Translations under genes and position numbers: made by a program | Shown here: one piece after another, positions 14,354 to 53,730 of the stretch | How positions within the stretch are numbered: the stretch's first letter is position 1 | Layout: every line of letters begins with the position of its first letter | The notes under the pieces: generated by a model | Database searches by the model: none | What the model saw: the letters and a program-made list of their open reading frames with translations, nothing else | Told to the model about the DNA's origin: nothing | IMG/VR virus record: IMGVR_UViG_3300050011_000047 | Location: 14,132-78,131 of that record | Reading direction: 5' to 3' (one strand) | Source of the DNA: a virus | Taxonomy: Duplodnaviria; Heunggongvirae; Uroviricota; Caudoviricetes | DNA: 64,000 nucleotides

Positions 14354-14355
14354 GT

Positions 14356-15297: not shown

Positions 15298-15300
15298 CGC

Positions 15301-19016: not shown

Positions 19017-19033
19017 ATTGCTACGCTTACGCG

Positions 19034-20158
19034 ATGCGCCTGCATCTTGTCTCGCTCCCACACACTGAAACGACCTCGGAGTACATGACCTGCGCCTACA
19101 CGCAGAAGGTGGTCAAGTTCTCGAAGATGATGGTCGAACAGGGGCACGAGGTCTTCCTCTACGCGGGCACGCGCAACGAAGCCATCTGCTCGGAGCACAT
19201 CGAGGTCATCACCGAGGAGGAGCGGCTCGGGTGGTACGGCAAGTGGGACACGAACAAACCACCGGACGTGGATTGGTCACCCGATCAACTTCCATGGGGC
19301 GTCATGGCTGCACGCACTGTTCGCTCGATCAAGAAGCGCCGTGAACCGGGCGACATTCTCTGTATGGTCGCAGGTTGGTCGCAGCAGGCTATTTCCAAGG
19401 CGCTCCCGCAGTTGCTTCCTCTTGAGTGGGCTGTCGGCTACGAGGGCATCCACCACCAATACCGCGTGTTCGAGTCGTATGCGTGGATGCACCACGTCTA
19501 CGGACTCACCGGCAACAAGGGATGGGACTACAACACAATCGCCTATGACACGGTGATCCCCAACTTCTTCGACCCCGTGGACTTCCACACCGCGCCGGAC
19601 AAGGACGACTACCTCCTGTTCATCGGCAGGCTTGTTCGACGCAAGGGGCCAGACGCAGCCGCACGCATCGCTGCGCTCACAGGACGCAAACTCATCGTGG
19701 CCGGGCCGGGTGCGAAGGCGCTCATGCCGGGGCGGATCATTGCCGAGGATGTCGTCATCGAGGGCGATGTTGAGTACGTGGGTGCAGTAGGCGCGGACGA
19801 ACGTGCCGAACTCATGTCCCGCGCGGCAGCGTGCATTGTGCCGACGCTGTACGTCGAACCGTTCGGCGGCGTGGCGGTCGAGGCGATGATGTGCGGCACG
19901 CCCGTCGTCGCGACTGATTGGGGCGCGTTCCCGGAGACGGTGCAGACGGGCATCTCGGGCTACCGCTTCCGCACGCTGCGCGAGGGCGCACGCGCAGTCG
20001 AGAAGGCAGTCCTCCTCGATACACAGGCCGTGTCGGACTACGCCCATCGGCGGTACAGCATCGACGCCGTAGGCCCGATGTTCTCGGAGCACTTCGAGCG
20101 CCTTCAAGAACTGTGGGACGAAGGCGGGTGGTTCGCATCGCGGTCTTTGACGGACTGA
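19034..20158 (+). CDS. glycosyltransferase family 1 (GT4-like) embedded among tail-fibre genes
   Basis: ...FIGRLVRRKGPD...LIVAGPG...EPFGGVAVEAMMCGTPVVATDWGAFPETVQTGISGYRF is a GT4 C-terminal signature. Confidence 0.6.
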   Translation: MRLHLVSLPHTETTSEYMTCAYTQKVVKFSKMMVEQGHEVFLYAGTRNEAICSEHIEVITEEERLGWYGKWDTNKPPDVDWSPDQLPWGVMAARTVRSIKKRREPGDILCMVAGWSQQAISKALPQLLPLEWAVGYEGIHHQYRVFESYAWMHHVYGLTGNKGWDYNTIAYDTVIPNFFDPVDFHTAPDKDDYLLFIGRLVRRKGPDAAARIAALTGRKLIVAGPGAKALMPGRIIAEDVVIEGDVEYVGAVGADERAELMSRAAACIVPTLYVEPFGGVAVEAMMCGTPVVATDWGAFPETVQTGISGYRFRTLREGARAVEKAVLLDTQAVSDYAHRRYSIDAVGPMFSEHFERLQELWDEGGWFASRSLTD

Positions 20159-21624
20159 TTGATTGGTGGGCATTCGGTGACGCTGCCGACGTGCTCGCCG
20201 CTGCACCGGACAACGGAGGATTCCCCGGATCGGATGCGGTGTTCTCCGATAACATCGCTCGCTTCGGCCTGACCCCACACGACGGGCTCTACACGAACGG
20301 CGGGTTCGGGTACCAAGGCGATCAAATCATCGGTATCAATGATGTCGAGCCCGGAGCGCCGTGGGCCTGCCGGTACGACAAGAAGGCGCTCGTGCAGAAT
20401 CTTGCACCAACTGGCCCTGCGTGGGACTCCGCAATACACTACGTCTTTGGCGATCTTGTGACCTACCTCAGTATCGTCTATCGTTGCATCGCAGCGAACA
20501 CAAACGTTGTACCAACGAACGCGGCCTACTGGCGCAGGATGCCGAGCGCCGGAAGCATCGACCCCGCCTCAGGTTGGGGCGGATTCTCCGGCCTCGTTGA
20601 TACGACGACGCCGACGGAGTTCTCGTTCAACATTTGGGCGAAGCCTACACCGAACGGCTACTTCATATCGCGCTCGGGTGCATTGATGTTGACGTACCTC
20701 TGCGGTGATGTGCAAGCAACTCCGGGCTCGGAGCGCGGATGGGCGATCACTGCCAACTACACCGGCACACCGCTCGGTTTCAACCCCAATAGTGGGTTCT
20801 TCCAACTGCGCTCCAAGAGTGGTGCGACGATCATGCCGAACTTGAGTCTCGGCTCCTTTCGCTATCTCGGTGATGGTTCGACAGATTGGGTGATGCTGAC
20901 CATCACGTATGACAGTACGACGGTCAAGTGCTATCAGTCATTCACAGTCGCGGGCTTCGGCTTCGTCACCACGCTCACGGACTCGTTGGTGACGGACTTC
21001 CATATCAACTCGCAGATTTGCTTCGGAGCACGGAACAACACCGGGCCTGACGACGGCTTGTTCTCCTCGCCATTCAACGGCGCGTTCGATGAGGCGCTCA
21101 TGTGGAATCGCGCACTCACTGCCGATGAGGTCAACGCGATCCCTACGGCGTGCAACGGGAGCACGAAAGGTAAGGCCCGCTTCACCGCAGTGCAGCCCGA
21201 AACACACAAGTTGTTCACGCACGCGAAGGTGATGCGCGGGGCGCTCGGTACGACCGTCGCGTGGGATGTCGCGGGGCTCTACACCGAGCCCGGCGAGCCG
21301 GTGGGCAGCGCGGTCACGGGTGGCCTGTTCCAAACCGTGTGGTTCAAGTGGACGGCCCCGGCCTCCGGCCCGATCACGTTCATCACGGCGGACTCCTCCC
21401 CCGGCGATGTCTACTCGCAGTCCCCCGGCGAGGCATCGAAACTGTGGAGCACCCTCACCGTGTGGACGGGCACTTCGCTCGGGGGCCTCACCGAAATCGT
21501 CTCCGTGGATGACTCTGCCGTCCACCCGGCGACCTTCACGGCGGTGGCCGGGACGGAGTATCTGATTCAGATCGGAACGGGCAAGACCGGCGAGAACGGC
21601 AAGGCATCTCTCGCATGGGGCTAA
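20128..21624 (+). CDS. LamG/concanavalin-like lectin-fold minor tail protein
   Basis: Ser/Thr/Gly-rich beta-rich sequence typical of phage LamG-like minor tail proteins (inference). Start GTG 20128 is inferred and overlaps the GT 3' end. Confidence 0.4.
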   Translation: MVRIAVFDGLIDWWAFGDAADVLAAAPDNGGFPGSDAVFSDNIARFGLTPHDGLYTNGGFGYQGDQIIGINDVEPGAPWACRYDKKALVQNLAPTGPAWDSAIHYVFGDLVTYLSIVYRCIAANTNVVPTNAAYWRRMPSAGSIDPASGWGGFSGLVDTTTPTEFSFNIWAKPTPNGYFISRSGALMLTYLCGDVQATPGSERGWAITANYTGTPLGFNPNSGFFQLRSKSGATIMPNLSLGSFRYLGDGSTDWVMLTITYDSTTVKCYQSFTVAGFGFVTTLTDSLVTDFHINSQICFGARNNTGPDDGLFSSPFNGAFDEALMWNRALTADEVNAIPTACNGSTKGKARFTAVQPETHKLFTHAKVMRGALGTTVAWDVAGLYTEPGEPVGSAVTGGLFQTVWFKWTAPASGPITFITADSSPGDVYSQSPGEASKLWSTLTVWTGTSLGGLTEIVSVDDSAVHPATFTAVAGTEYLIQIGTGKTGENGKASLAWG

Positions 21625-21709
21625 ATCAGCCCGCCCGGCACGTCCTGTAAGCCCCTCTAGCCCTCATAGCGCCGACGCGGGCGCTCACACCCGCGTGGAT
21701 GCTCCGGGC

Positions 21710-21976
21710 TTAGGAGGGCTCCTGTGGCCTCGCAGCGATTCCGACGATCAGGCCGTTCGGCCCGTCCGCGATGCCCTCGACCACGACGTATCGGCTCACG
21801 CCGTCCTCACGCACGGCGAGCACGTCCCCGGCGGAGATGCGCGAGCCCGTGAGCGGCTGCTCGGCCTCCGGCGGAATGAACCTCAGGTTGTGAAGGGCGA
21901 TCATACGCAGGCTCCCCGAGATGCTCCACACGCCCCAGGCGAGGAAGAACAGGAGGGCGAAGAACGCAGTAGTCAT
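21710..21976 (-). CDS. small membrane protein (single N-terminal TM helix)
   Basis: MTTAFFALLFFLAWGVWSISG... followed by a soluble ~60-aa domain. Opposite strand, between the LamG gene and portal gene. Confidence 0.4.
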   Translation of the reverse strand: MTTAFFALLFFLAWGVWSISGSLRMIALHNLRFIPPEAEQPLTGSRISAGDVLAVREDGVSRYVVVEGIADGPNGLIVGIAARPQEPS

Positions 21977-22022
21977 GTCGTGAAGACTAGCACGTCGCGA
22001 TATAGGAAAAGGCGACGGCAGG

Positions 22023-22037
22023 TATACTCGTAGGGTG
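22023..22037 (+). promoter_or_regulatory. leaderless promoter: -10 TATACT, 6 nt, then GTG start of the portal gene
   Basis: ggTATACTcgtaggGTGgac has the same spacing and the same second codon (GAC) as the GATACT-N6-ATGGAC elements at 5676 and 30955. Confidence 0.35.
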
Positions 22038-23756
22038 GACGCACCCGATCCTAAGAAGGTACGCGCAGCCGTCGAAAAGGCCAAGGAGGGCTCCGACGGC
22101 AAGGTGCTCAAGGTACTCTACCTCGACGCGCAGGGTGAGCCCGCAGGCGATTGGGCCTCGACGCAGTTGCCCGAGAATCCGTGGGAGACTGTGCAGGCCA
22201 CCACGCAGTTGATCGAGCCCCCGTTCCCTATGGGGCAGTTGACCTTCCTCGCGGAGATGCACCCGGTGCATTCATCGGCGCTCGAACAGAAGGCAGCGGA
22301 CGTGTGCGGCAAGGGATGGGAATGGATCGCGGATGATCCCGATGTAGCAGACGAAGACCTCCGTGACGAGATGGAGGACTGGTTCCAGTCGCTTGCACCG
22401 GACGAGTTCGACATGCGCGAACTCGTCAACACCGCGTGGCTCGATGAGGAGACGACCGGGTGGGGACTGCTCGAATGCGCACGTGATCCGCAGGGAGTCG
22501 TGCAGCGGCTCTACCACGTGCCCGCGCACACGGTCAAGACGCACAAGAACGGGTTTGCTCTCTGCCAGGTGCGCGACTCGCGCAAGATGTGGTTCCGTAG
22601 GTGGGGCTCCACTGACATCGCCGGGAAGCCGGTCGAGGTCAACATGCGCAACGGCTCAATCACGAACGTGCCGGAGGATCAGCGCGCGAACGACCTTCTC
22701 GTCATCAAGCGCCCGTCGCGGCGATCCACGTGGTACGGCATCCCCGGCTACATCTCCGCAATCGGATGGATCACGCTCGCGCTCGCAGCACGCGATGACA
22801 ACCTGTACTTCTTCTCCAACCGCCGCGAGCCCCGTTGGGCGATCATCCTCACCGGTATGGCCGAGGATACCGAGATTGAGGAAGATCTCCGGCGCGCGTT
22901 CACCGTGGACATGAAGCAGCCGTACCGAAATGTCATGGTACCGGTCGCAGGCAAGGACGCGAAGGTCACCTTCCAAGAGTTGTCGTCCACGGCGAAGGAC
23001 GGCTCGTTCGGGAACCTCGGGGATCGCGCCGACAAGGCCATCATGGTCGCACACCGCGTGCCCGCCGAGCGTCTTGCGAACTCCCAGGTTGGCGCTCTCG
23101 GCGGCAACGTCGCGTCCGAGTCGAACCGCGTCTACAAGGAAGGCGTCGTCGCTCCCGCGCAGGAGGTTCTCAACTCGCGCCTCAATCGCTTCATCGCGGT
23201 CGAGTTTGCCAAGTACAAGAATCAGGAGTACAAGAAGGGCGACAAGTCGATGTGGCTTCTCAAGATGGATGACCTCGACATCCGCTCCGACCGCGAGGAC
23301 ATGGATCAGGCGCTCATCCTGTTCCACGGCGATATGATTACGCTCCGGGAAGCGCGTCATCGGCTCGGCCTCGGCCCACTCATGAAGCCGAAGCCGGTCG
23401 CACAGAAGAACCCGGATGGTACGCCGAAGACGAACCCTGACCCGATCACGGGTGAGCCGACGCAGGTCTTCGGCCCGCCGATCCCCGGCGTAGACGACGA
23501 GGAGAACCCGGCAGTGGACATCAACGGCAACCCCGTACCGCCTGAGGAAGTCGAGTCCGAGTTCAATGACATGTTGTTCTCGCAGTTGCCGGGCGCGAGC
23601 GGTCAGGCCGGGCTCCCCGGTGGCGCTCCGCCTACCGGCACCGGCAAGTTGACGCCGGAAGTGAACAAGGCGCTCGCGTCTGACGTGCGTGAACTGCTCC
23701 GTTCATCCTACGCGACACATGATCGTATCGCGCGGATGGCCGGAGATGACGGCTAG
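22035..23756 (+). CDS. portal protein
   Basis: 573 aa with an acidic C-terminus, immediately upstream of and overlapping a MuF-like gene (canonical portal-MuF pairing). Assignment is by size and context. Confidence 0.55.
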   Translation: MDAPDPKKVRAAVEKAKEGSDGKVLKVLYLDAQGEPAGDWASTQLPENPWETVQATTQLIEPPFPMGQLTFLAEMHPVHSSALEQKAADVCGKGWEWIADDPDVADEDLRDEMEDWFQSLAPDEFDMRELVNTAWLDEETTGWGLLECARDPQGVVQRLYHVPAHTVKTHKNGFALCQVRDSRKMWFRRWGSTDIAGKPVEVNMRNGSITNVPEDQRANDLLVIKRPSRRSTWYGIPGYISAIGWITLALAARDDNLYFFSNRREPRWAIILTGMAEDTEIEEDLRRAFTVDMKQPYRNVMVPVAGKDAKVTFQELSSTAKDGSFGNLGDRADKAIMVAHRVPAERLANSQVGALGGNVASESNRVYKEGVVAPAQEVLNSRLNRFIAVEFAKYKNQEYKKGDKSMWLLKMDDLDIRSDREDMDQALILFHGDMITLREARHRLGLGPLMKPKPVAQKNPDGTPKTNPDPITGEPTQVFGPPIPGVDDEENPAVDINGNPVPPEEVESEFNDMLFSQLPGASGQAGLPGGAPPTGTGKLTPEVNKALASDVRELLRSSYATHDRIARMAGDDG

Positions 23757-26700
23757 CGCACTAGACCTCTCCGCCGAGCATCTCCGTCAGGTCGAGGAGT
23801 TGTACCTTCGCATCCGCGAGGCGGGGATCGAAGCCGACGCAGGCAGTGATGATCTTCTCGCACTCTCGCGCGAGCACAAGCGGCGCGTGAAGCATCTGTT
23901 CCTCGCGGTCGAGAAGATGCGGCGCAGCCCGCACCGGCAGGCCGTCCATGAGAAGTCGCACGCGCAGCGGCTCGCGCTTGAGCAGGTGTGGACGCAGCGG
24001 CTCCGGCTCCTCTCCGACCATCTCGTCAACGGCTTCGACATCGACGGGGCCTACGAGGTAGCCCGGCGGGCGTGGGTCACCCCGGCGGACGAGCCCCACG
24101 ACGGCATCTACGTGGACGAGCATGCGCCGGGGCGGCTCAAGAAGGCTCTCACGCCGCCGAAGAAGTCTGACCTCTCGGTGGTCGAGCACTGGCCCGGCAA
24201 GCGCGGGACGGCGGCTCGACTTGCGCTCAAGAGGGCGGCGACTACCGAGGGCGTCGAGGCGCTCGTGCTCCGCGACTCGACCGGCAACCCGATTGCCGTC
24301 GCAGCGGTCAAGGCGAGCCCCGGCGACCTGCACGTGGAGTTCCTTGCATCCGAGCCCGGCAAGGGCGCACAGATGATGCAGGAGTTGGCGAAGGTGGCGA
24401 AGAAGACCGGCTCCGGGCTCTCCCTGTTCTCTGTCCCCGAGGCGGCGCAGTTCTACGATGGGATCGGGATGGCGGCAGGCGACCGCGCCGGGCAGTACAT
24501 CATGACCCCTGCGCAGACGGCGGCATTCGCGGTGACCGGCGGCATTCTTCCTCCGGCGGGCTCGAAGGCGGCGGGTATGACCAAAACCGAGCAGGCAGGT
24601 GTGCAGCAGTTGATGCTCAACGCGATCCAGTCGAGCGGGACACCTGGCAGCGCCGACGTGAAGCGGGCACTCTCATCGGTCGAGAATCAGGCAGCATGGG
24701 AGCGCGGCGCGGCGACGCAGTACCTCGGGCTCGCGGTGCAGACGGCGGAGCAGGCCGGGCAGGTGGCGCTCGATCATCTCGGACTCCACAAGACGTTCGA
24801 GTTCGCGAACCCGCAGACGATGGTGGGCGACGCGACGGCGGTGCGCGGCTCGAAGGTGATTCAGTCCATGTACGGGGCGCACGTCGATGCGCTTACGAAC
24901 ATCATCACGGACGCCACTAACCCGGCAGCGCCGCAAACCATCGCGCAAGTCAAGGCGTCGATCCGCGAGCAGTGGCCGAAGTTGCAGACGTATCAGGTCG
25001 AGCGGATCGCACGCACGGAGACGGCGGCGGTGTGGATGTCCACGAGCGCGAACGCCTACGCGGCGAACGGCATCTCGCAGTTCGAGACTATCGTCGCCAC
25101 CGGCCCAAGCATCGGCGTCGAGAGCGAAGACCCGTGCGACGAGTGTGTGGCGGCGGCAGAGGACGTGCACTCGCTCGATGACGACCTCCCGCCGTGGCAC
25201 CCAAATGCGGTGCTTGGAGGTTCTACGTTTCTATCTTACGGTGAACCGCTCGAAGCGGTTCGTGCGCGCTACCGTGGCCTTTCCGTACTCATCCGTGCGG
25301 GGGAGCACGTGCTTACCATCGGGCCTAACCACCCGGTGATGACCCGGCGCGGGATGGTGCCTGCAAATCAGATTCGCGAAGGTGACGAGTTGGTCTACGA
25401 CAGACGCGCTAATCGGCAGGAAGGCGCGATACGCGCTATCACATCGGACATCGAAGACGTGCCACTCGTCGAGGATGCGTTCACGGCGCTCCTGTCTACG
25501 GGCACGTATGCGACCGTTCCCGTGACCCCCGATGATCTCCACTGCGACGGGGTATTCTGCGAGGGCGAAGTCGATGTTGTAAGGCCCGACGGCAACCTGC
25601 TGGCGGTACTCGATCCCCGAGGCATCAAGGAGATGCGCGAAGTCGCGTTCGAGGCTTCCAGCGCCGAGTACCCTCAACTCTCTCGTTTTCGCGCGAGCCT
25701 CACGCCGAGAGAGCGGGTCGATGTTTCCACGTCGAGCCTCGTGGCAGGCCATGAATCGCTTAGGTTTATTCGAGTCATTCATGTGGACTTTGTGGACTTC
25801 GAGGGATGGGCGTTCGATTTCTCGGTACAGGGTGGGATGTATCTCAGTAATGGCTTTATGGTATCAAACTGTCGATGCGAGGCCGTGCCGGTACTGGAGG
25901 ACACGGACGGCACGCCATGGCTTCCGCCGGACGAACCGTGGACGGGCGGCGGCGACGGCTCCGGTGACATGGCACCGGGCACATTGTTCGAGCCGATGCC
26001 TCCACCGGAGCAACTCGCGATGGAGTTTGCGCCGGGCACGGTTGCGCCGTCGGCGGACATCTTGCTCAAAGGCTCGCTTGCGCAGCAGACGGTGCAGGAA
26101 GAACTCGGCAACATCGGGCGCGTGCATCAAATCCCCGATCACGTTGATGTGCCTTCGGTCAAGGGCGCGGTACACAACTCCTACTCACCCGATGAGAACC
26201 GCATCTTCCTCAATCCTCGTCCCGCCGAAGGCGAGTATCTCAAGGGCACGAGCGTTGTTCACGAGTACGGGCACTTCGTGCAAGAGCAGCGTGTCGTCTC
26301 AATGAACGATCAGATTGCCGTGTCCGATATGGCCGAGGCCACGCCGGAGTGGGCGTCGTTCGAGCGGTACGACCAACAACCGAACGAGTTGTTCTCCCGC
26401 GTGTATCAGCAGTGGATCGCAACCAAGAACGCGGACGAAGTGAAGTTGGCGTTCTACAAGGCGCAAGGCAAGTTTTGGTCACCCGAGTCGTTCAAGCCTC
26501 TCGGCGCGAAGATGGATGAGGTCTTCGCTCCGCTCATGAAGCCGAAGTTCCCGGACGGCTCACCCAAACTCCCGGAGAAGACGCCCGACGCAGCGCCCGC
26601 ACCGAAGGCGGAGGAGTTCCCCGCACCACTCGTGATCGACGCTGCGACGTGGACTGAGAAGAAGGTAATCGAGACACTCGCGCCGTTCGAGGGACGCACC

Positions 26701-29700
26701 GTTCGCCTGACGGGCCAGGGGTTCAAGGGGCACGAGTACACGATGGAGGGCGAGTACAAGTTCGACAAGGAATCAGGCTACCCGCTCGTTGGGGATCGCA
26801 CCATCGGCACCGGCACGGACATGGTGCACGTCGAAGTGCAAGACTCCGGCGGCGCGTGGCACACGATTGCGGAGAAGCCGTTGTCCGAGCGTGCGCCGGT
26901 CGAGCCCGAGCCGACGTTCTCGAAGCCCGACGCACTCCCCACGTATTCGGGCAAGACCGTGGAACTGTCCGAGCGGTACAAACTCAAGGTGCCGAACAAG
27001 GAGTTGAAGGCGTCGGTCACGACGGCGCTCGATGACATCGCGAGCCGGATTAAACTCCCGGAGGAAGCACGCCCTGTGGACGTTACGCCGGGCTCCGGCA
27101 TGTCGTCAAACTTCACGCCCGCAGGTGTGCAGCGCGGTGTTGTCAAGGGTGCACGCATTCGTATCTCCACGAATCGCGGTACGCAATCGCATTTCGACCG
27201 CATCGACTCGACCTATCATGAATACGGGCACTACCTCGATTGGACGGGCCTTGGCGGCGCGGATGGTTGGGCGGGCACGCGGTACGGCTCCGAGTACGCA
27301 GCCGACATGAAACCGCTCATGCAGGCGTTCTTCGACTCGCCCGAGTACAAGCAGTGGCGCGACATCTACTCCGGTAAGTTCAAGCCCGGTGAGGGTGTCT
27401 ACGCGCCCAAGAGTCATGCTCGCTACATGAAGTCGAACGTCGAGTTGTTCGCTCGCGGCTTCGCGCAGTACATGTCCGAGGTCACTGGCAACGCGGAGTA
27501 CCGCGCGTTCGTGGCCGATCACGTCCCGCTTGAGAAGGGCGGGTGGTATTGGACGCCGGAGAACTTCGCGCCGATCAAGGACGAGTTCGACAGGTTGTTT
27601 GAGAAGCGAGGTCTACTCAAGGAGACGCCACCCGCGCCCGAGCCGTTGCCCGCACCTACACCCGAGCCCCTCGCGCCGGAGACGCCCGCGTTCGCGCCCA
27701 AGGAGCCGCTCACGCAAGATCAGCAGTTGGCCGTCAACGACTACACCGGCAGAGGCGGCGAGGGGCAGGAGGGCTACCTACGCACGAACCGTTGGCTCCG
27801 TGGGCTCAAGCAGACACACGGCGACCCGCTCGCGACGATCAAGAACCGCGTCGAGCATCTCGATGCAGCCATCGAGAGCGCGGCCCCGCTCGCGACGCCG
27901 ACGACCGTGTGGCGCGGTATCGGTAACTCTGAGTTCTATGGTGGCGGCGGCACGCTCAAGGTCGGTCAAGTGATCGAAGACCCGGCCTACCTCTCGACCT
28001 CTTCGACGCCGAAACTTCCGACCTCGTGGGCGGGCACTCACGGCGACCTGTGGGAAATCAAACTGCCGAAGGGGATGAAGGGCCTCGACGTGAACGCGGC
28101 CCTCAAGGACACACCCTACGGCCCACACGGGCTCGATCCGGCCACGACCAAGGAGGGCGAGATTATCCTCCCACGCAACACGCGCCTCGTGGTGGACGCG
28201 ATCAAGGAGCGTGTCACGACATACCCGAACGGGAACCGCGTGGTCGCACACGACGTTACAGCGCACGTGGAGAGCATCCCCGAGTTGCGCCCGCCGACGC
28301 CGGTCAAGGAGAACATCCCCGATCCGAACCCGGCAACTCCGCCACCGCCCCCGCCTCCGCCCCCGCCTCCGCCACCGGCACCCACTCCGGTGCATCCGAC
28401 GACTCCCGAGGCAACACCGGCCTCCACGACGAACAACCCGCCCCTCCCCGAGTGGCACGACTTCACGACGCCCTCCGGGCTCGAAGCCGGGCTCGCACAC
28501 TACGAGGGCAAGCAGGTGCGTCTGACGTTCACGTTCCCGAGCGGAGCAACTAAGAAGTTCACCGGGCTCGTTGAGCGCAACTCACGCGGGCAGATGATGG
28601 TGGATCGTTCGACGTTCCGCGAGTCAGCCGTCCCGAACATCACGGGCGTCGAGGTCAAGGTCGGCAGTCGCTTCAAGCCGTGGAAGGAATACGAGCGTAT
28701 GACGCCCGAGCAGCAGAATCCCGCGCCTCCGAAGCAGCGCACGGCATCCGGTTCGTCAGAGAAGCCGGTACCCGAGGGCGGTTACACGTTCCCGGACAAC
28801 GTACCGAGCGGTGTCCTCGGTGACGTACCGGCAACGCCGATCTTCGAGAACGTCGCGCATGCACAGGCGTTCGCAGAGAGGTACCTCGCACGTGAGGTCT
28901 ACCTCGGAAAGAACCCGGAACTCAAGGGCGTGCAAGAGGCGCTCGATGCGATGGCGCAAGTGCTGCGCCCGTTCGACTTGAAGATCGAGCGGTTGCAGGT
29001 CGAGCATGATCCGCGCTCCTCGGGGCTCGCGTACTACTCCTCGAATGCCACGAAGAAGATGCTCATTGACGGCAAGAAGCAGTATTGGTCAGGCGAACTC
29101 ATCCGCGCGCAGGCGCAGTTGTTCTCGAAGTCCAAGGCGGCGGCGGTGGGTGACAACCAAGCAGTGTTCGAGGCGAACAAGGCGAAGGAGATTCGCACGC
29201 GCGAGGACTGGATCGCACAGGCGGAAGAACGCCACACGTCACCCGAGAAGATCGCGCAGTACCGTCGTGAGATTGCCAACTTGGAAGCGGCGAAGCGGTG
29301 GTACATCGCGGCGGTTGATGGCGGTGCTGACGCCACCAAGGCGTTCATGTCGCACGAGGCTGCGCACATGCTCTCGCGTAACTTCGGACATGAAATCGCC
29401 GGAGTCAGCATCACGGAGGCGGGGCTCGCGCCGATCTTCACCACGCGACTTGAGTTGCACGGCGTCACGCAGGAGGAGCGTTGGTCAGTCTCGCAATACG
29501 GCGCGAGCGGCGACAAGGCGCGACAGGCTCAAAACTCGGAGTTGTTCGCAGAGGTTACGGCGGCGAAGATCAGCGGGCACTATGACCTCGTGCCCCTCAA
29601 CATCCGCGAGGCATACGAGGAGACGCTCGGCTACATCACGCAGGCTGACATCGAGGCGAAGGCAGCGGCGAACAAGGCCCGAGATGCGGCGGTCGAGGCG

Positions 29701-29757
29701 AAGCGCGTACAGAAGGCCGGGCTCGAATCGGTGCGCAAGCGGGTTGGGCTACACTAG
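23746..29757 (+). CDS. giant MuF-like virion protein: MuF domain interrupted by an intein, two HEYGH zincin-like motifs, an ADP-ribosyltransferase-like domain, a poly-Pro linker and a C-terminal domain
   Basis: ATG 23746 after CCGGAG. Translation has ERIARTETAAVW...DLPPWHPN[221 aa]CRCE (Mu F signature PPxHPNCRC split); TSVVHEYGHF and STYHEYGHY; ...TTVWRGIGN...AYLSTSS...KEGEIILPR (R/STS/ExE); [14 protein letters not shown]. Confidence 0.7.
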   Translation: MTASALDLSAEHLRQVEELYLRIREAGIEADAGSDDLLALSREHKRRVKHLFLAVEKMRRSPHRQAVHEKSHAQRLALEQVWTQRLRLLSDHLVNGFDIDGAYEVARRAWVTPADEPHDGIYVDEHAPGRLKKALTPPKKSDLSVVEHWPGKRGTAARLALKRAATTEGVEALVLRDSTGNPIAVAAVKASPGDLHVEFLASEPGKGAQMMQELAKVAKKTGSGLSLFSVPEAAQFYDGIGMAAGDRAGQYIMTPAQTAAFAVTGGILPPAGSKAAGMTKTEQAGVQQLMLNAIQSSGTPGSADVKRALSSVENQAAWERGAATQYLGLAVQTAEQAGQVALDHLGLHKTFEFANPQTMVGDATAVRGSKVIQSMYGAHVDALTNIITDATNPAAPQTIAQVKASIREQWPKLQTYQVERIARTETAAVWMSTSANAYAANGISQFETIVATGPSIGVESEDPCDECVAAAEDVHSLDDDLPPWHPNAVLGGSTFLSYGEPLEAVRARYRGLSVLIRAGEHVLTIGPNHPVMTRRGMVPANQIREGDELVYDRRANRQEGAIRAITSDIEDVPLVEDAFTALLSTGTYATVPVTPDDLHCDGVFCEGEVDVVRPDGNLLAVLDPRGIKEMREVAFEASSAEYPQLSRFRASLTPRERVDVSTSSLVAGHESLRFIRVIHVDFVDFEGWAFDFSVQGGMYLSNGFMVSNCRCEAVPVLEDTDGTPWLPPDEPWTGGGDGSGDMAPGTLFEPMPPPEQLAMEFAPGTVAPSADILLKGSLAQQTVQEELGNIGRVHQIPDHVDVPSVKGAVHNSYSPDENRIFLNPRPAEGEYLKGTSVVHEYGHFVQEQRVVSMNDQIAVSDMAEATPEWASFERYDQQPNELFSRVYQQWIATKNADEVKLAFYKAQGKFWSPESFKPLGAKMDEVFAPLMKPKFPDGSPKLPEKTPDAAPAPKAEEFPAPLVIDAATWTEKKVIETLAPFEGRTVRLTGQGFKGHEYTMEGEYKFDKESGYPLVGDRTIGTGTDMVHVEVQDSGGAWHTIAEKPLSERAPVEPEPTFSKPDALPTYSGKTVELSERYKLKVPNKELKASVTTALDDIASRIKLPEEARPVDVTPGSGMSSNFTPAGVQRGVVKGARIRISTNRGTQSHFDRIDSTYHEYGHYLDWTGLGGADGWAGTRYGSEYAADMKPLMQAFFDSPEYKQWRDIYSGKFKPGEGVYAPKSHARYMKSNVELFARGFAQYMSEVTGNAEYRAFVADHVPLEKGGWYWTPENFAPIKDEFDRLFEKRGLLKETPPAPEPLPAPTPEPLAPETPAFAPKEPLTQDQQLAVNDYTGRGGEGQEGYLRTNRWLRGLKQTHGDPLATIKNRVEHLDAAIESAAPLATPTTVWRGIGNSEFYGGGGTLKVGQVIEDPAYLSTSSTPKLPTSWAGTHGDLWEIKLPKGMKGLDVNAALKDTPYGPHGLDPATTKEGEIILPRNTRLVVDAIKERVTTYPNGNRVVAHDVTAHVESIPELRPPTPVKENIPDPNPATPPPPPPPPPPPPPAPTPVHPTTPEATPASTTNNPPLPEWHDFTTPSGLEAGLAHYEGKQVRLTFTFPSGATKKFTGLVERNSRGQMMVDRSTFRESAVPNITGVEVKVGSRFKPWKEYERMTPEQQNPAPPKQRTASGSSEKPVPEGGYTFPDNVPSGVLGDVPATPIFENVAHAQAFAERYLAREVYLGKNPELKGVQEALDAMAQVLRPFDLKIERLQVEHDPRSSGLAYYSSNATKKMLIDGKKQYWSGELIRAQAQLFSKSKAAAVGDNQAVFEANKAKEIRTREDWIAQAEERHTSPEKIAQYRREIANLEAAKRWYIAAVDGGADATKAFMSHEAAHMLSRNFGHEIAGVSITEAGLAPIFTTRLELHGVTQEERWSVSQYGASGDKARQAQNSELFAEVTAAKISGHYDLVPLNIREAYEETLGYITQADIEAKAAANKARDAAVEAKRVQKAGLESVRKRVGLH
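25207..25869 (+). other. putative mini-intein (221 aa) inserted between N and C of the MuF HPN/CRC motif
   Basis: Begins AVLGGSTFLSYGE (Ala1). Block B-like LTIGPNHPV (TxxH). C-terminal ...GMYLSNGFMVSN followed by Cys +1. Local GC is lower than the flanking extein. Confidence 0.5.
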
Positions 29758-31520: not shown

Positions 31521-32465
31521 TTACGGGTATGTAGAACTCCCCGGCGTGGATGGGACATTGAGGAACGGGATAACGCCTGTGCTAGAGCCGACAAGCGTGC
31601 TCGGCAGGATGCCGTTCCACCTGACGTAGTACTGCCATGACAGGAGTAGAGCCGTCACGGATGCGGCGACTAGTTTGTTCGCCTTGGCCTGCGCCGTTGC
31701 TTTGATGAGCACCGAGCGAGCCGTCGCCTCAGCGTTGATGATAGTCTGCGCCTTGAGAGCGCGCTTGGCGGCGATCAGGTTCTCTTGCTGTAACGCCTGT
31801 TGATGCGCGATGATCTTGGCCTTGACGGCTGCGACGAACGCCGGATCGAAGATCGCGTCCTCGATGTTGACGTAATCGACCACGATGCCGTAGCCCTTGA
31901 GTTGATCGGTCAACTGACCCTGAATCGTCAGTGCGAGCGCGTCCCGCTCCTTGGCGAAGTCGATGGCCTGAATCTGACCAACCGCCGCCTTGGTGCGCTG
32001 GTAGAGCGCAGGCTGAATGACCGTGCTCGCGTACTGCAAGCCGATGCGCTGGTACAGGAACGGGGCCTTGGCCGGATCAACGTGGTAGTTGACCGAGGCC
32101 ACGACGGTGATTTCCTGCAAGTCTGCGGACTGCGCGAACACCTTGTCCGAGTACAACTTCTGCGTTCGCACGGACATCACCGTGAGATGCTGTAGCCACG
32201 GCAGAAGAAATGAGACACCCTCGCCACGCGGCGTCTGTTGGACGCCGCCGTTCCACTGGAAGATCACGCCCCTGTATCCTGCGGGGACGACGCCGATGGC
32301 AGGCACGATCAGGAAGGACGCGAGCACGGACACCGCTGCCCTCCGTAGTGCGCGCTTAACGACGGGTGCATCCTTGCGATGCCGGAATGCCTGCACCAAG
32401 AAGAAGACGGCGACGCCTCCGAACATGGCCCAAATCACCGGCTGTATGAGAGCCGCGTAAGTCAT
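31521..32465 (-). CDS. SPFH/band-7 (stomatin/prohibitin/HflK/C-like) membrane protein
   Basis: N-terminal TM, then ...GYRGVIFQWNGGV...LTVMSVRTQ...EITVVASVNYHV... (SPFH core) and a coiled-coil AEATARSVLIKATAQAKANKL. Strong AAGGAGG SD. Confidence 0.65.
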   Translation of the reverse strand: MTYAALIQPVIWAMFGGVAVFFLVQAFRHRKDAPVVKRALRRAAVSVLASFLIVPAIGVVPAGYRGVIFQWNGGVQQTPRGEGVSFLLPWLQHLTVMSVRTQKLYSDKVFAQSADLQEITVVASVNYHVDPAKAPFLYQRIGLQYASTVIQPALYQRTKAAVGQIQAIDFAKERDALALTIQGQLTDQLKGYGIVVDYVNIEDAIFDPAFVAAVKAKIIAHQQALQQENLIAAKRALKAQTIINAEATARSVLIKATAQAKANKLVAASVTALLLSWQYYVRWNGILPSTLVGSSTGVIPFLNVPSTPGSSTYP

Positions 32466-32477
32466 ACTGCCTCCTTC

Positions 32478-32993
32478 TTAGTTTCCATAGCGAGGAACGC
32501 TATGGGTTGGATTGTTGGTGCGAGAGTTACCACCGTGGCCTCCGGTGCGTGAGTTACCACCGCTGTTAGTGCCGGTACCGGAGAGTGCAAAAGTGTTCGG
32601 GTACGGACGCGCACGATTCCATGCGTTCGTGATGTTGCCGTCGTATGTCGGCCAATACTCGTTCGTCTGCAAGATGCCGATGCACGCAACCTTGGTGCCC
32701 TGCCATCCGTTGTCCACGACGGCCTGACAGAAGGAGCCCTGCACGACACCCATGTCCGGCTTGTCGGACATCACCTTGGCGCGCTGCACGCGGCACATCG
32801 CCGCGAGGTTTGCATCTCCCACTCCTTGCGACTTCATGAAGGAGTCGCCTGAGCAATACCCTTGGAGTTGACTATCAGCAAGCCGCACAAGATTCGCGTC
32901 GTATGGTGGGATGAAGCCGACCGGCATCGCGATATAGACGAACCCGAGGATGATCGTAAGGGCTCCTGCGAGCCCGAGTAACTTACGGCTCAT
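32478..32993 (-). CDS. membrane-anchored/secreted hypothetical protein between ftsH and the SPFH gene
   Basis: MSRKLLGLAGALTIILGFVYIAMPVGF... (TM), Cys-containing ectodomain, Gly/Asn/Ser-rich tail. ATGA overlap with the ftsH stop. Confidence 0.45.
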   Translation of the reverse strand: MSRKLLGLAGALTIILGFVYIAMPVGFIPPYDANLVRLADSQLQGYCSGDSFMKSQGVGDANLAAMCRVQRAKVMSDKPDMGVVQGSFCQAVVDNGWQGTKVACIGILQTNEYWPTYDGNITNAWNRARPYPNTFALSGTGTNSGGNSRTGGHGGNSRTNNPTHSVPRYGN

Positions 32994-34978
32994 GACTCGA
33001 AGCCCCCGAGTAGGTTGTGAATCTCGTCGCCGGTCACAGTGCCCTCATCGTACAGGAGCCGGGCGACGGCCTCGATGTCGTCCTTGTGCGCCGTGAGCAG
33101 CGTGCGGCAGGCTTCGAGCGCCTCAGCGAGAATACCCTCGGCCTGCTTCTGCACCAAGCGGTTGTCCGCAGGGTAGACGCCAATCTGAGAAGCGAGCCCG
33201 TAGCCGACCATGCGCACCGCGTCCTGTGTGGCACTTGCGGCGTCTCCGCCATGCCCGTTGGTTGTGGTACCGATAAGGAGTTGCTCGGCCACGCGGGAGG
33301 CAAGACTCACCTGAATGTCGGCAAGCAACTCGGCGCGTGTCATAAGCCAATCCTCATGCAACGGGGTCGGCGCAACCATGCCGCCCGTCTCCCCTCGGCG
33401 CTCGATGCTCGCGAACCAAATGTGCTGCCTCGTGCGGCAGAGGAGATGGAAGGCTACTGCGTGCCCGGCCTCGTGGACGGCGACGTTCCAGCGGGCTTCC
33501 TCGCGCTCGAAGGGGCCATCGGACTCCCCGAAGCGTGTCCACAGCATCGCGTGCATTAGGTCGTAGAAGCGCACAATGCCGGGGTCATCCCGTTCGTCCC
33601 GGAAACTAACGAGCAACGCCTCGTTCACGATGTCCTGAATCTCGGCTCCGGTGCCTCGCGCGTGGTTGCGCGCGGCCCATTCGATGTTCGCAGGGGTGAG
33701 GTCATTCGTGACCTTACGAAGGTAGCCCTCATACGTCCGGCGGCGACCATCGACCTTCGGGAAGGTGACGTGAATCTTGCGCCCGAACCGCCCGGCGCGG
33801 AGCAGCGCGGGGTCGAGGCGATCCATCATGTTCGTTGCGCCGATCATGAGATACTTGTACTCATACGGAGCCATAGGCTTGAACCCGGCAAAGACGAGAA
33901 GACGATTCAACGGGCCACGCGGCTCCTCCATCCCGTCCATCGCGGAGAGGAACGCTTCGAGGGTACCCATGCCGCCGCCACCGCCGCCGACCACGATGCT
34001 GCGCGTATCGTCAGACGCGGCAGGACGACTAAACGGCACGCATCCGGGCGCTCGACATTCTGCCGGAGCGGCCCCGAGTACATCCCCGCCACGTGAGCCG
34101 AGAGAGTCAATCTCGTCAATGAACACGATGACGCCACCGTAGCGCCGAGCCAACTTGCGAATCTCGCGGAACAGAGTCCACACCTTGAGCAAGTTGATGC
34201 CGACGAACGTCGCTTGGAACGCGCCCGGAGGCACGAGGATGAGCGGCTTCGAGGAGTAGTTCGCCGCTGCCTTCGCGAGATACGTCTTTCCGGTACCCGG
34301 CGGCCCGTAGAGAAGTAGGCCCTTCGGCATGTACCCGCCAGCCGCCTCGATGTGGTCGGAGTCTTCAAGCAGTTTCACCTGTTCCATAACCTTCTGCTTG
34401 GCGTCGTCCTGACCCCACACGTCATCGAACGTGACATTGACTGTGCCGGGCATGACGACCTTGTATGAGCCGACCTTGACCATCGCATAGAACATGATCC
34501 CGAGTTGGAATAATGTCAGCGCAACCATCACGGCGAACTGTATGAACATCGGGAGGTTCTCGACCGCGAGACGGGGCGCGAGGATGACGCACTGTATCGC
34601 GCTTGAGCAGCGCGTGGTGAGTGCGTTGACCATCATGCCAAAGACGTAGAGGGCTAGCAGCCAAGTTGCCACACGCTGCACCTTCAACCACGATTGCTTC
34701 GAGACTACAGCCGCACGCAATCGGGCTCGCTTTTCAACCCTTGCGGTCTTCGCTACCCAACTCTCATCGACTTCCAAGCGCGCGTGGTGGAACTCGCGCA
34801 GCACGAGGAAGGCGAGAGCGAAGATGGCTAGGCGTGCAGGGAACGAAATGGAGAACGGGAACGGTGATGCCCACTCGCTCGCGGCCACATACGCGATGAT
34901 GATGACCGGAAGTTTGACCCGCTCGAAGAACGGCTTAGGTGGGCGTAGCGCTATGGGGCGCTTCTCAACTTCACTCAT
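32990..34978 (-). CDS. ftsH: FtsH-like membrane AAA+ zinc metalloprotease
   Basis: N-terminal TM segments. Walker A LLYGPPGTGKT, Walker B VIVFIDEIDS, second region of homology ATNMMDRLDPALLRAGRFGRKIHV, zinc site HEAGHAVAFH. Start ATG 34978 preferred over TTG 35014. Confidence 0.75.
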   Translation of the reverse strand: MSEVEKRPIALRPPKPFFERVKLPVIIIAYVAASEWASPFPFSISFPARLAIFALAFLVLREFHHARLEVDESWVAKTARVEKRARLRAAVVSKQSWLKVQRVATWLLALYVFGMMVNALTTRCSSAIQCVILAPRLAVENLPMFIQFAVMVALTLFQLGIMFYAMVKVGSYKVVMPGTVNVTFDDVWGQDDAKQKVMEQVKLLEDSDHIEAAGGYMPKGLLLYGPPGTGKTYLAKAAANYSSKPLILVPPGAFQATFVGINLLKVWTLFREIRKLARRYGGVIVFIDEIDSLGSRGGDVLGAAPAECRAPGCVPFSRPAASDDTRSIVVGGGGGGMGTLEAFLSAMDGMEEPRGPLNRLLVFAGFKPMAPYEYKYLMIGATNMMDRLDPALLRAGRFGRKIHVTFPKVDGRRRTYEGYLRKVTNDLTPANIEWAARNHARGTGAEIQDIVNEALLVSFRDERDDPGIVRFYDLMHAMLWTRFGESDGPFEREEARWNVAVHEAGHAVAFHLLCRTRQHIWFASIERRGETGGMVAPTPLHEDWLMTRAELLADIQVSLASRVAEQLLIGTTTNGHGGDAASATQDAVRMVGYGLASQIGVYPADNRLVQKQAEGILAEALEACRTLLTAHKDDIEAVARLLYDEGTVTGDEIHNLLGGFES

Positions 34979-35000
34979 GAGTCGCAGTGTAGCGGAAGTT

Positions 35001-35027
35001 GCGGCCCCCTGCAAGGCAAGGGGCCGC
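35001..35027. other. 8-bp GC hairpin GCGGCCCC...GGGGCCGC between the holin-like gene and ftsH
   Basis: Read directly. No U-tract follows. Confidence 0.3.
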
Positions 35028-35408: not shown

Positions 35409-35819
35409 TCAAGAATCGGAGTGTTCGTTCCGTCGGGCCATCTTACCACGCCCGCTTCTCGTGTGGCGCAAACACTTACACTTAGGTGGGCATTTCCTAC
35501 TGCGAGAATGTGGCAAGTCCTTAGGGAAGGCTTCGAGTTGCTTCTTTCGTTCCGGGTGGCAGACGAATCTGAGAAGAAGAAGTGCGGCTTGGGATGCCTC
35601 CTTGCCCCGTACAGCGTAGTCCCACCTAGGACTTCGTTTGTAGCGGTCATGCCCGTAACTGTCCGGCACAAATGGGCCACGGACTTCTCCGCCCAAAATA
35701 GCCTTTAGACGAAGGAGCGGCTTCTCATGTATTTGAGATACACGCAACCGATTTCCTTGGAGGTCAACACTTCCCTCACCATCGAAGAAGCCTGCGGCCC
35801 AAGCGATTTCAGTGTCCAC
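35409..35819 (-). CDS. LAGLIDADG-family homing endonuclease (paralogue 2)
   Basis: MDTEIAWAAGFFDGEGSVDL... In a low-GC island (~35400-35850). Confidence 0.6.
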   Translation of the reverse strand: MDTEIAWAAGFFDGEGSVDLQGNRLRVSQIHEKPLLRLKAILGGEVRGPFVPDSYGHDRYKRSPRWDYAVRGKEASQAALLLLRFVCHPERKKQLEAFPKDLPHSRSRKCPPKCKCLRHTRSGRGKMARRNEHSDS

Positions 35820-36462
35820 GATTTACAATCTTTGCGCGTAGAGATTCGTCACGAACATGAAGGTAGACCTCCGTCGTGGCAATGTTGGCGTGCCGGAGGA
35901 GCCGCTGTACCTCGTGGAGAGGGAAGCCGTCCTCGATCAGTTCGGTGGCGTATGTATGGCGAAAGACATGTGGCGTCACGATGCCATATATCTTAGCAGA
36001 TTTCTTGAGCCGGAGCACGAGCCGCTGCACGTAGCGCACGGTGACCGGCGTGCCGTCGGGGTTGACGATCAGCGGCAGCGTCGGGTCAGCGTCCGGCCCG
36101 AGCCACTCCTTGCGCTGCGCGAGGTAGGCGTCGAGTGTCGGGAGGATGGCGTCCGGCGTGAAGTACGCGGTGCCGTCGCCTCCCTTCGCATCGTACAGGT
36201 GGATCACGCCATCGCGCTCAACGTCGCGCGGGCGTGTGGCTACCGCCTCAGATACTCGGAGTCCTGCTCGGTACATGAGCAAGAGGAGAAGCACGTTGCG
36301 CTTCGCCTCGCGCGTTCCGTTGTCCGCGAGTGCGAGCAGTTCGGTGGCTTCTCGCCGCGAGAGGACTTTCGGTAACTTCTTCTTTTTGCGCTTCTTTGTA
36401 GGGCTTGGCTCGTCGCCTTGGGCTGGCATGACATGTCCTGGGCTGGCATGTAAATCGATCAC
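35809..36462 (-). CDS. short tyrosine recombinase (integrase/Xer-like catalytic domain only)
   Basis: ...GLRVSE... (box I Arg), HVFRHTYAT (HxxR), LLRHANI, TTEVYLHV (Tyr). Lys-rich N-terminus PTKKRKKKKLP. Start region carries the tandem duplication GGGCTGGCATG...GGGCTGGCATG. Confidence 0.55.
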   Translation of the reverse strand: MIDLHASPGHVMPAQGDEPSPTKKRKKKKLPKVLSRREATELLALADNGTREAKRNVLLLLLMYRAGLRVSEAVATRPRDVERDGVIHLYDAKGGDGTAYFTPDAILPTLDAYLAQRKEWLGPDADPTLPLIVNPDGTPVTVRYVQRLVLRLKKSAKIYGIVTPHVFRHTYATELIEDGFPLHEVQRLLRHANIATTEVYLHVRDESLRAKIVNRGH

Positions 36463-36478
36463 ACCCTCATTGTACGTG

Positions 36479-37123
36479 CTAACGGTCGGCGGTGACGCGC
36501 TTGGCGAGTGCCTTCTCGTCCGCCGTGTAGCGCACCGTCTTGACCGACGAAATCTTGCCGCCGACGAACGGAGTCATCTCCGTCGCAGCGGTGATCGCGC
36601 GAGTGGCGATGCCTACCAAGTCCTTGTCCGGGATCGGCAGACGTGCTTCGCGCTTCGATTTCCCTGCGGTGAGTTCACCGTGCATCGAGCCCGTTGCAGT
36701 TTCCCCGCCCGAGCCGATGGAGTCGAACGGGTAGATGTGCTCGTCCACACCGAAGTCCGACCACACGGTGAACAAGCGCCCACGCACCGCGAGCATGAAC
36801 GCACTCGGGCCGAACTCCTCGACGTTGTGGTAGATGTGCAGGTGGCCGTGATCCTCCATCAACTGCCGGATGTACGGGATGAAGTCACGCACGATCCACC
36901 GATGCTCGTCCATTCCGAGCGGCGGATCATCGAGCGAGTCCATCAAGTGATGTTGAAGAATCTGCCCGAACCGACCTGAGCCGCAGTAGCCGACGGCAAG
37001 CACATCCGAAAGTTGAAAGACCTTGGGCGAGACATCTTCGCGCTTCGTCCACTCCGTCGATCCTTGCGCATCCCCTGCGATGAGGACACCCTTTTCACCA
37101 ACGAGTCCGACGATGCATGTCAT
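36479..37123 (-). CDS. HslV/20S-proteasome-beta-like Ntn-hydrolase peptidase
   Basis: MTCIVGLVGEKGVLIAGDAQGS (HslV: MTTIVSV...IAGDGQ, Thr at position 2) and ...SIGSGGETATGSMHG (HslV GSGG). Confidence 0.55.
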   Translation of the reverse strand: MTCIVGLVGEKGVLIAGDAQGSTEWTKREDVSPKVFQLSDVLAVGYCGSGRFGQILQHHLMDSLDDPPLGMDEHRWIVRDFIPYIRQLMEDHGHLHIYHNVEEFGPSAFMLAVRGRLFTVWSDFGVDEHIYPFDSIGSGGETATGSMHGELTAGKSKREARLPIPDKDLVGIATRAITAATEMTPFVGGKISSVKTVRYTADEKALAKRVTADR

Positions 37124-53694: not shown

Positions 53695-53730
53695 CGAGCG
53701 ACATTATAGCGACATTCATGAACCGGGATC
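53695..53730 (-). promoter_or_regulatory. leaderless promoter: perfect -10 TATAAT, 8 nt, then ATG 53694; embedded direct repeat ATGTCGCT x2
   Basis: Minus-strand reading gaATGTCGCTATAATGTCGCTcgATGtcc. Confidence 0.35.

Follow-up and report, generated by a model that had tools for sequence, protein, structure and literature searches.

Head-packaged ADP-ribosyltransferases (ARTs) are among the means by which a phage gains control of its host cell during the first seconds of infection. To our knowledge, Alt of phage T4 is the only well-studied head-packaged ADP-ribosyltransferase. It is a stand-alone internal head protein with its own N-terminal signal and processing by the prohead protease, and it is not fused to MuF. 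Fusions of an ART with MuF have a standard name among phage annotators, namely 'ADP-ribosyltransferase domain and MuF-like fusion protein'. Here, a window of 64,000 nucleotides from a tailed phage (Caudoviricetes; positions 14,132 to 78,131 of the IMG/VR record IMGVR_UViG_3300050011_000047) was analysed computationally. It encodes a very large MuF-type head protein with an internal domain that is predicted to be an ART with an R-S-E catalytic signature. Gene and protein are referred to as MuF/ART in the following.

T4 Alt is injected into the host and modifies RNA polymerase (PMC5512222). Many ARTs of the Alt/VIP2 type are fused to MuF and were predicted to be packaged into the head (Iyer 2022, PMC9503650), and MuF-VIP2 fusions were described in the Microbacterium phage clusters EH and EJ (Jacobs-Sera 2020, PMC7302621). 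ARTs make up 14% of the MuF toxins, and one MuF-ART, the 'EFV toxin', has ADP-ribosyltransferase activity (Jamet 2017, PMC5576092). Polyvalent proteins were named by Iyer et al. 2017, and R-S-E ARTs were said not to occur in them (PMC5512222). Neither the ART family nor its fusion to MuF nor the predicted route of injection is new to the literature, and current understanding is unchanged by the MuF/ART protein. Judged from its sequence, it is a divergent example that is unusually large and composed of many modules.

T4 Alt serves as the functional model for this protein. Both have an ART of the R-S-E clade; Alt is carried in the head and delivered with the DNA, and packaging of the MuF/ART protein is presumed. 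Of the actinobacteriophage MuF-ART fusions (Percival gp4, Goodman, Gilda; PMC7302621), Percival was found as a Foldseek match (E~1e-9) and Gilda as a weak tblastn match, and the sequence similarity to the Microbacterium fusions is marginal (tblastn E of at least 0.07). The latter have about 600-700 aa and two domains, whereas the MuF/ART protein has about 2000 aa and an internal ART. Unlike them, it also contains an intein, three HExxH modules, an LPD1 domain and an additional C-terminal module. With the polyvalent proteins (PMC5512222) it shares its character as a very large virion-associated protein with zincin-like modules, LPD1, MuF, ART and module shuffling. An R-S-E ART is present, in contrast to the 2017 survey of these proteins (PMC5512222); fusions of Alt/VIP2 with MuF are reported in PMC9503650 by the same authors.

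Sequence features of the ART domain

The initial annotation had placed an R-S-E ADP-ribosyltransferase signature within a virion protein at 27700-28230. The quoted peptide is the exact frame 1 translation of the + strand and corresponds to residues 1338-1514 of an open reading frame (ORF) of 2022 codons. Pfam family PF03496 (ADPrib_exo_Tox) matched residues 1338-1509 with E=2.8e-14 and 53.3 bits (gathering cutoff 23.4), covering profile positions 13-180 of 196. Weak matches were obtained with the PHROG families 'Alt-like RNA polymerase ADP-ribosyltransferase' (E=3e-4) and 'ADP-ribosyltransferase exoenzyme toxin'. When 1.84 billion representatives were scanned exhaustively with HMMER, 533 homologues were obtained at E≤1e-3, with best identities of 50-70%. 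No matches were returned by a word-indexed homologue search with the ART domain alone as query. Megablast and tblastn of the ART region against the cultured phages of INPHARED gave none at E≤1e-5 and, when relaxed, only matches with E of at least 0.07. A phmmer search of the PDB with the single sequence gave only a marginal match to ExoT (E=0.03).

A profile was built from an alignment of 46 sequences and matched 50 PDB sequences at E≤0.01. Vip2 was the best match (E=3.8e-30) and Lmo0066 formed the second-best group (E=1.8e-25). Further solved matches were CdtA, Certhrax, BEC-a, iota Ia, C3larvin and ExoT, and the profile also matched the solved structures of Vis, SpvB, C2-I, ExoS, HopU1, C3 and Tre1. 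E values for Vip2, CdtA, Ia, Certhrax, C2-I, C3, ExoS/T, SpvB, Vis and Tre1 ranged from 4e-30 to 1e-11.

The three motif sites were the best-conserved columns across homologous ART domains. Counts were made over 202 homologous domains (denominator 203), with non-gap counts for the two glutamate columns. The column of R1409 contained Arg in 200/203 domains, and the columns of the STS motif contained Ser in 199/203, Thr in 185/203 and Ser or Thr in 192/203. E1491 was matched by Glu in 151 of 153 non-gap domains and E1489 by Glu in 139 of 152, with Gln in four. R1409, G1426 and E1491 were invariant in the 46-sequence alignment, where the Arg is position R85 and E1491 is E167, and the helix motif Y..N..LR (N1367, L1370, R1371), which VIP2 also has, was near-invariant. 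E1491 is predicted to be the catalytic glutamate and E1489 the arginine-specificity glutamate. The spacing of the motifs had been given as about 29 and about 54 residues; the actual distances are 27 (R1409 to S1436) and 55 (S1436 to E1491), which is close enough. With PF03496 above its threshold, profile matches to solved ARTs and near-invariant motif columns, the signature itself was borne out.

The window contains one copy of the ART domain according to a six-frame scan with the ART profile. The G+C content at third codon positions (GC3) is 0.80-0.85 over the ART region, the same as in the rest of the gene. Several homologues carry tandem arrays of R-S-E ART domains (P0006, P0007, P0008 and P0016), with 5-7 significant copies per protein in a local rescan and up to 8 matched ART stretches per protein in the library search. 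The array-bearing proteins have 2200-4300 aa, and single ART matches occur in proteins of up to 7004 aa.

Predicted structure of the ART domain

AlphaFold2 was run on the single sequence of the ART domain with an unusable result (pLDDT 34), which was replaced by an alignment-based model with a pLDDT of 90.9 and a pTM of 0.87. The model consists of N-terminal helices with the Y..N..LR motif, a core β-sandwich and an extra C-terminal β-hairpin. R1409 is located in strand β1 (model residues 81-87) and the STS motif in the next core strand (model residues 111-114). E1491 is the first residue of a strand (model residue 167) that follows the ARTT-type loop.

The best 50 Foldseek matches in the PDB were all R-S-E ART toxins (lowest E value 7e-12, TM scores of about 0.6) and included Plx2A, VIP2, Certhrax, CDTa, Ia, C2-I, C3bot, C3larvin and Lmo0066. 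A non-ART fold was not seen. Among viral models (BFVD), phage ARTs were matched, including fusions with MuF or head-morphogenesis proteins from Raoultella phage RP180 and Microbacterium phage Percival. Mycobacteriophage VIP2 proteins, ARTs of about 1300 aa from Gordonia and Mycobacterium phages and RNA polymerase ADP-ribosylases of the T4 type were found there as well.

Sequence and model together support the prediction that residues ~1338-1528 form a catalytically competent R-S-E mono-ADP-ribosyltransferase domain of the VIP2/iota/Alt type. Arginine would be the acceptor because the motif has the ExE form, as in VIP2, iota, ExoS, Tre1 and Alt. A resemblance to the C3, VIP2 and iota toxins had been proposed from the motif spacing. 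It holds for fold and profile matches; by its ExE motif the domain groups with VIP2, iota and Alt and not with C3, which has Q-x-E. For the same reason, an Asn-specific identity like that of C3 was ruled out.

Architecture and genomic setting of the head protein

The longest ORF begins with GTG, but ATG 23746 (codon 20) is probably the true start, since alignments with homologues begin no earlier than window residue 20-23. This was seen in BLASTP alignments of the full protein with its four closest homologues (P0001-P0004). The precursor would accordingly have 2003 aa. GC3 lies between 0.73 and 0.91 along the frame, the intein excluded. The coordinates of the gene, its modules and the adjoining genes are summarised in Table 1.

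Matches to PHROG families of head proteins, head morphogenesis, minor head and MuF-type proteins cover residues ~290-660. The MuF motif PPxHPNCRC is contiguous in homologues that lack the intein and is split in the window protein into PPWHPN, the intein and CRCEAVP. In homologue P0005, Phage_Mu_F of Pfam was matched with 35.5 bits (cutoff 29.6), and weakly in P0002 and P0004. The portal gene lies directly 5' of the MuF/ART gene with an overlap of a few bases, and this gene order is identical in seven related contigs; the genes of P0001-P0004 directly follow a portal gene. The PHROG matches, the portal gene upstream and the presence of tail genes in the vicinity agree with the virion protein setting that had been assigned to the signature.

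Only weak Pfam matches to Zn_peptidase_2 and DUF6782 were obtained for the first zincin-like module (E~4e-3, below cutoff), and the PHROG family 'minor head protein and DNA pilot' matched residues 1091-1311. The C-terminal module (323 aa) is common to the window protein, P0001-P0003 and P0005. Searches of Pfam and PDB sequences gave nothing meaningful for this module or for the N-terminal ~270 aa. No internal repeats were detected at E≤0.01 when the full protein was compared with itself by BLASTP, and the HExxH modules are therefore not claimed to be paralogous repeats. A profile of the N-terminus (positions 39-119, with HEKSH in the window protein) also matched residues ~1800-1881, before HEAAH. 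This suggests that the helical modules at the N-terminus (23689-24555) and at the C-terminus (29100-29370) are distantly related.

Features of polyvalent proteins were thus found in LPD1, in three HExxH motifs with weak zincin matches and in orthologues that differ in their modules. These features support the classification of MuF/ART as a multi-module ('polyvalent') MuF-type head protein of ~2000 residues from an uncultured high-GC tailed phage, as far as can be predicted from sequence. Matches of the window were obtained to a 91.8-kb Logan contig and to fragments out of wood metagenomes. Its GC content of 63% and a portal protein that resembles mainly those of Streptomyces and Rhodococcus phages suggest an actinobacterial host.

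Table 1. Positions of the MuF/ART gene, its predicted modules and adjoining genes in the 64,000-nucleotide window.
Feature	Positions	Strand	Details
Portal protein gene	22035-23756	+	Pfam Phage_portal, E=2.4e-11; PHROG portal families
Longest ORF of the MuF/ART gene	23689-29757	+	2022 codons, GTG 23689 start; ORF list
Gene of the giant multi-module MuF-type head protein	23746-29757	+	ORF list, homologue alignment, GC3
MuF (SPP1 gp7 / Mu gp30-like) head-morphogenesis region	24556-25206	+	Ends with PPWHPN; resumes at 25870 with CRCEAVP
Intein A507..N727, 221 aa	25207-25869	+	Between PPWHPN and CRC; Ala start, SN/C end (cut after N)
Antisense ORF, 183 aa, putative Vsr/DUF559-like homing endonuclease	25231-25782	-	Nested in the intein
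First zincin-like module	25999-26538	+	HEYGH, residues 858-862 (nt 26260-26274)
Second zincin-like module, then LPD1	26956-27621	+	HEYGH, residues 1177-1181 (nt 27217-27231)
LPD1 (PF18796)	27412-27606	+	Residues 1242-1306; 29.6 bits, cutoff 27, segment scanned alone
Pro/Ala/Glu-rich linker ahead of the ART	27622-27699	+	Contains TPPAPEPLPAPTPEPLAPETPAFAP; translation
R-S-E ADP-ribosyltransferase domain (predicted)	27700-28272	+	Residues 1338-1528; Pfam, profile against PDB, AlphaFold2, Foldseek
Catalytic/NAD-binding Arg1409 (predicted)	27913-27915	+	VWRG, W1408-R1409; conserved column, model strand
S1436-T1437-S1438 motif	27994-28002	+	YLSTS; conserved columns, model strand
E1489-G-E1491 (ExE)	28153-28161	+	End of ARTT-type loop; conserved columns
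Proline-rich linker	28276-28420	+	14 consecutive prolines; PPPPPP motif positions 1551-1562
C-terminal module with HEAAH	28786-29757	+	HEAAH, residues 1889-1893 (nt 29353-29367); BLASTP against homologues
Cys/His-rich ORF, 72 aa	29762-29980	+	CxxC…C, HDHH; GC3 0.86; 5 nt after the MuF/ART stop

Relatives and exchange of modules

A search with the full-length protein revealed 25 relatives, all of them metagenomic, and seven additional loci were obtained from IMG/VR. In the four closest relatives (P0001-P0004), the N-terminal ~490 residues are ~50-60% identical and the ART is 56-70% identical to the window protein. The two HEYGH/LPD1 modules are absent from P0002 and present in P0004. Across the relatives, the same N-terminus is joined to an ART of PF03496, Zeta_toxin, PHP, AAA_33, ATLF (anthrax lethal-factor-like) or LPD1 in varying combinations. 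By these comparisons, the ART is one exchangeable cargo module on a conserved head-protein scaffold. Module exchange on a conserved N-terminus would be expected for injected effectors. The orthologues (P0151-P0170; loci L010-L023) also retain the N-terminus of ~490 aa at ~50-60% identity and range in length from 1143 to 2876 aa.

Intein and antisense ORF

The insert of 221 residues is considered an intein, as it is precisely this stretch that is missing from homologues, P0001-P0004 aligning up to residue 507 and resuming at 727/728 (BLASTP). It is 44% identical to the intein in the minor capsid protein of Rhodococcus phage REQ3. Within the intein, GC3 of the sense frame falls from ~0.87 to ~0.65. 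Its sense frame had no Pfam matches, and its block F is devoid of Cys.

The antisense ORF occupies exactly the complementary codon frame of the intein. It had weak Pfam matches to MTES_1575 and DUF559, both below cutoff, and is 46% identical to its REQ3 homologue. With tblastn, homologues were found always antisense within MuF genes, namely in REQ3, in Pseudomonas, Gordonia and Vibrio phages, in Cronobacter phage ES2 and in Aggregatibacter phage Aaphi23. In phages with 42-52% GC, these ORFs are open over 233-338 aa. When the window was compared with REQ3, the sense frame was better conserved in the splicing blocks, where changes fall mostly on sense codon position 3. In the centre of the intein, the antisense frame was better conserved, and changes fall mostly on sense position 1, equivalent to position 3 of the antisense frame. 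Inteins of minor capsid proteins with an 'anti-sense VSR-like HEN' were described in actinobacteriophages (Gosselin, Arsenault, Gogarten; bioRxiv 10.1101/2025.01.02.630785), and the intein with its putative antisense endonuclease is of this kind. Given the homologues listed above, the arrangement may extend beyond actinobacteriophages.

Further genes in the window

The 72-aa ORF had no match in Pfam and no recognisable ADP-ribosylhydrolase (ARH), macro or other ADP-ribose-removing domain. Its homologues adjoin the MuF gene in five of seven ART-bearing loci (once inverted) and in none of five ART-less loci; these loci are few and phylogenetically related, the co-occurrence is confounded with the shared C-terminal module, and the ART-bearing loci L016 and L018 do not have the ORF. 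As an accessory or immunity factor, the ORF is a weak candidate; it may merely be linked to the shared C-terminal module. A tyrosine recombinase gene is found at 35809-36462 (216 aa).

A possible second gene related to NAD or ADP-ribose lies at 53716-54657 (-), where a C-terminal DUF4326 was matched with E=1e-23 and the N-terminal 200 aa carry no assigned domain. Iyer et al. 2022 (PMC9503650) predicted that DUF4326 processes phosphate-linked derivatives of ADP-ribose. Pfam searches of ~40 window proteins, with small ORFs partly scanned, gave only this DUF4326 and no macro, ARH or NADAR domain.

The + strand block of 12110-23756 has an atypical gene order, as tail genes precede the portal and MuF genes. 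Upstream of the latter lie genes for a Dit-like protein (14356-15297, +) and a tail-fibre-like protein (16482-19016, +), followed by a GT4 glycosyltransferase (19034-20158, +) and a Laminin_G/CBM protein (19918-21624, +). The direction of transcription flips right after the MuF gene and closes this block. Four genes on the - strand (32990-35014, 36479-37123, 31521-32465 and 50456-51304) represent unusual cargo for a phage: FtsH-like AAA+/peptidase M41, a proteasome-subunit-like protein, SPFH/Band 7 and a full sigma factor of the sigma-70 type. In relatives, too, the FtsH-like gene is retained close to the MuF gene. PolA, an SNF2 helicase, a Cas4-like nuclease, a primase, Dam and a dNMP kinase are also encoded by the phage.

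Proposed function and alternatives

The ART module probably acts in an Alt-like manner, being injected as part of the MuF head protein and catalysing arginine-specific mono-ADP-ribosylation of one or more host proteins. Family membership, catalytic residues, fold, head-gene context and module exchange among relatives are directly supported, and from these we infer packaging, ejection, processing, the arginine acceptor, a target in the host and an advantage for the phage. The published MuF fusions cited above speak for this scheme. The precursor would be translated late, along with the portal protein, and the intein would splice out of the MuF motif to restore PPWHPN-CRC. The MuF part would then carry the protein via the portal into the procapsid, in the same way as SPP1 gp7, which enters the procapsid through the portal. 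At infection, the protein would exit the head together with the DNA, either whole or cleaved, be it at the Pro-rich linkers or by the zincin-like modules it contains. Once in the cytoplasm of the host, the ART would use R1409, the STS motif and the Y..N..LR helix to bind NAD+. It would then transfer one ADP-ribose onto arginine(s) of host protein(s), E1491 acting as catalytic base and E1489 conferring specificity, and might aid host takeover in the manner of T4 Alt.

Several observations weigh against this scheme. The segment just before ExE (model residues ~151-170) has a lower confidence with a pLDDT of 69-77, and it is an insertion that is missing from about a quarter of the homologues. The ExE motif correlates with arginine specificity without proving it. 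For Phage_Mu_F, the score of the window protein stays below the threshold because the intein splits the motif. The ART is internal and not terminal in a protein of ~200 kDa. A cultured-phage relative of the N-terminal/MuF part was not found in INPHARED, nor were prophage relatives among 185,579 GTDB species genomes scanned for host inference. Finally, the 72-aa ORF and the tyrosine recombinase fit a toxin/immunity view about equally well.

In such a view, which appears rather unlikely overall, the protein would be a MuF 'polymorphic toxin' module (Jamet et al. 2017) delivered by a temperate phage, with the 72-aa ORF encoding its immunity or neutralising factor. Its purpose would be growth inhibition of newly infected or competing cells or a bias of the lysogeny decision. 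An N-terminal MuF with variable toxin-type modules exchanged between relatives is in line with this, as are the position and co-occurrence of the 72-aa ORF and the presence of the recombinase gene. Moreover, antibacterial ART effectors with immunity partners (Lmo0066, Tre1) are among the closest bacterial relatives of solved structure. The EFV toxin of E. faecalis V583 and other MuF polymorphic toxins (PMC5576092) likewise have an N-terminal MuF, a variable toxin domain and a small ORF downstream. They come mostly from Firmicutes prophages, however, and carry a single C-terminal toxin, as is classical for polymorphic toxins, whereas the window ART is internal and one of several modules. Prophage relatives were absent from the bacterial genomes scanned, and the recombinase is short and need not be an integrase. 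The co-occurrence is subject to the confounding described above, and the 72-aa ORF is without a recognisable ADP-ribose-removing domain. Listeria Lmo0066 and Serratia Tre1 resemble the window ART as R-S-E ARTs with protein targets in the bacterial cytoplasm; they are delivered by secretion systems and countered by ADP-ribosylhydrolase immunity, and a hydrolase of this kind was not detected in the window genes scanned.

Doubtful as a whole is a combination of two claims: that a true multi-effector polyvalent head protein of an uncultured ~92-kb lineage has the R-S-E ART as an internal, exchangeable cassette, and that the 72-aa ORF encodes a new kind of dedicated partner that neutralises or chaperones the ART.

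The ART fold might also act mainly as NAD+ glycohydrolase or on RNA, DNA or a small molecule, which is considered improbable. There are precedents in the RNAylation by ModB, in the DNA-ARTs pierisin and Scabin and in NADases with an ART fold. The R-S-E triad is common to such enzymes, the acceptor cannot be told from sequence and fold alone, and the DUF4326 protein of the same phage hints at a wider role in NAD or ADP-ribose metabolism. Still, all significant solved sequence matches were protein-modifying ARTs of the C2/C3/VIP2/ExoS group; pierisin, Scabin or NADases were found neither among the 50 PDB sequences nor among the best 50 Foldseek matches, and ExE is typical of Arg-specific protein ARTs.

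A toxin directed against eukaryotes that ADP-ribosylates actin like VIP2, iota or C2 and serves the bacterial host as a virulence gene is very improbable, even though VIP2, CDTa and iota Ia were the best solved matches. VIP2, iota Ia, CDTa, C2-I and C3 have the same catalytic fold and an R / S-T-S / (E/Q)-x-E site, but only 16-23% identity to the window ART. Compared with VIP2, alignment gaps show a shorter distance from R to STS and a longer one from STS to ExE. Only one ART domain is present, the duplicated N-terminal adaptor domain of binary toxins is lacking, no signal peptide was found, and among the neighbouring window genes scanned there was no B/PA-like component. In addition, relatives replace the ART with Zeta-toxin and PHP modules that act inside bacteria. 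A binary actin toxin in particular was ruled out by the one ART domain in the window, the lack of a B component among the genes scanned and the embedding in a head protein beside the portal gene.

Least likely of all is a decayed, catalytically dead ART remnant that acts as a structural spacer of the head protein; many modules of polyvalent proteins are indeed uncharacterised, but the catalytic residues and the NAD-binding helix motif are intact on invariant family columns, GC3 is as elsewhere in the gene and the fold was predicted with high confidence.

Significance

If the 72-aa ORF does encode a partner of the ART, this partner would hold the enzyme inactive inside the producing cell up to the time of packaging. 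The lineage, with its swappable ART, Zeta-toxin kinase, PHP, ATLF-like and zincin modules, may be a natural test bed for the packaging, release and delivery of large effector proteins and could reveal new bacterial targets of arginine ADP-ribosylation.

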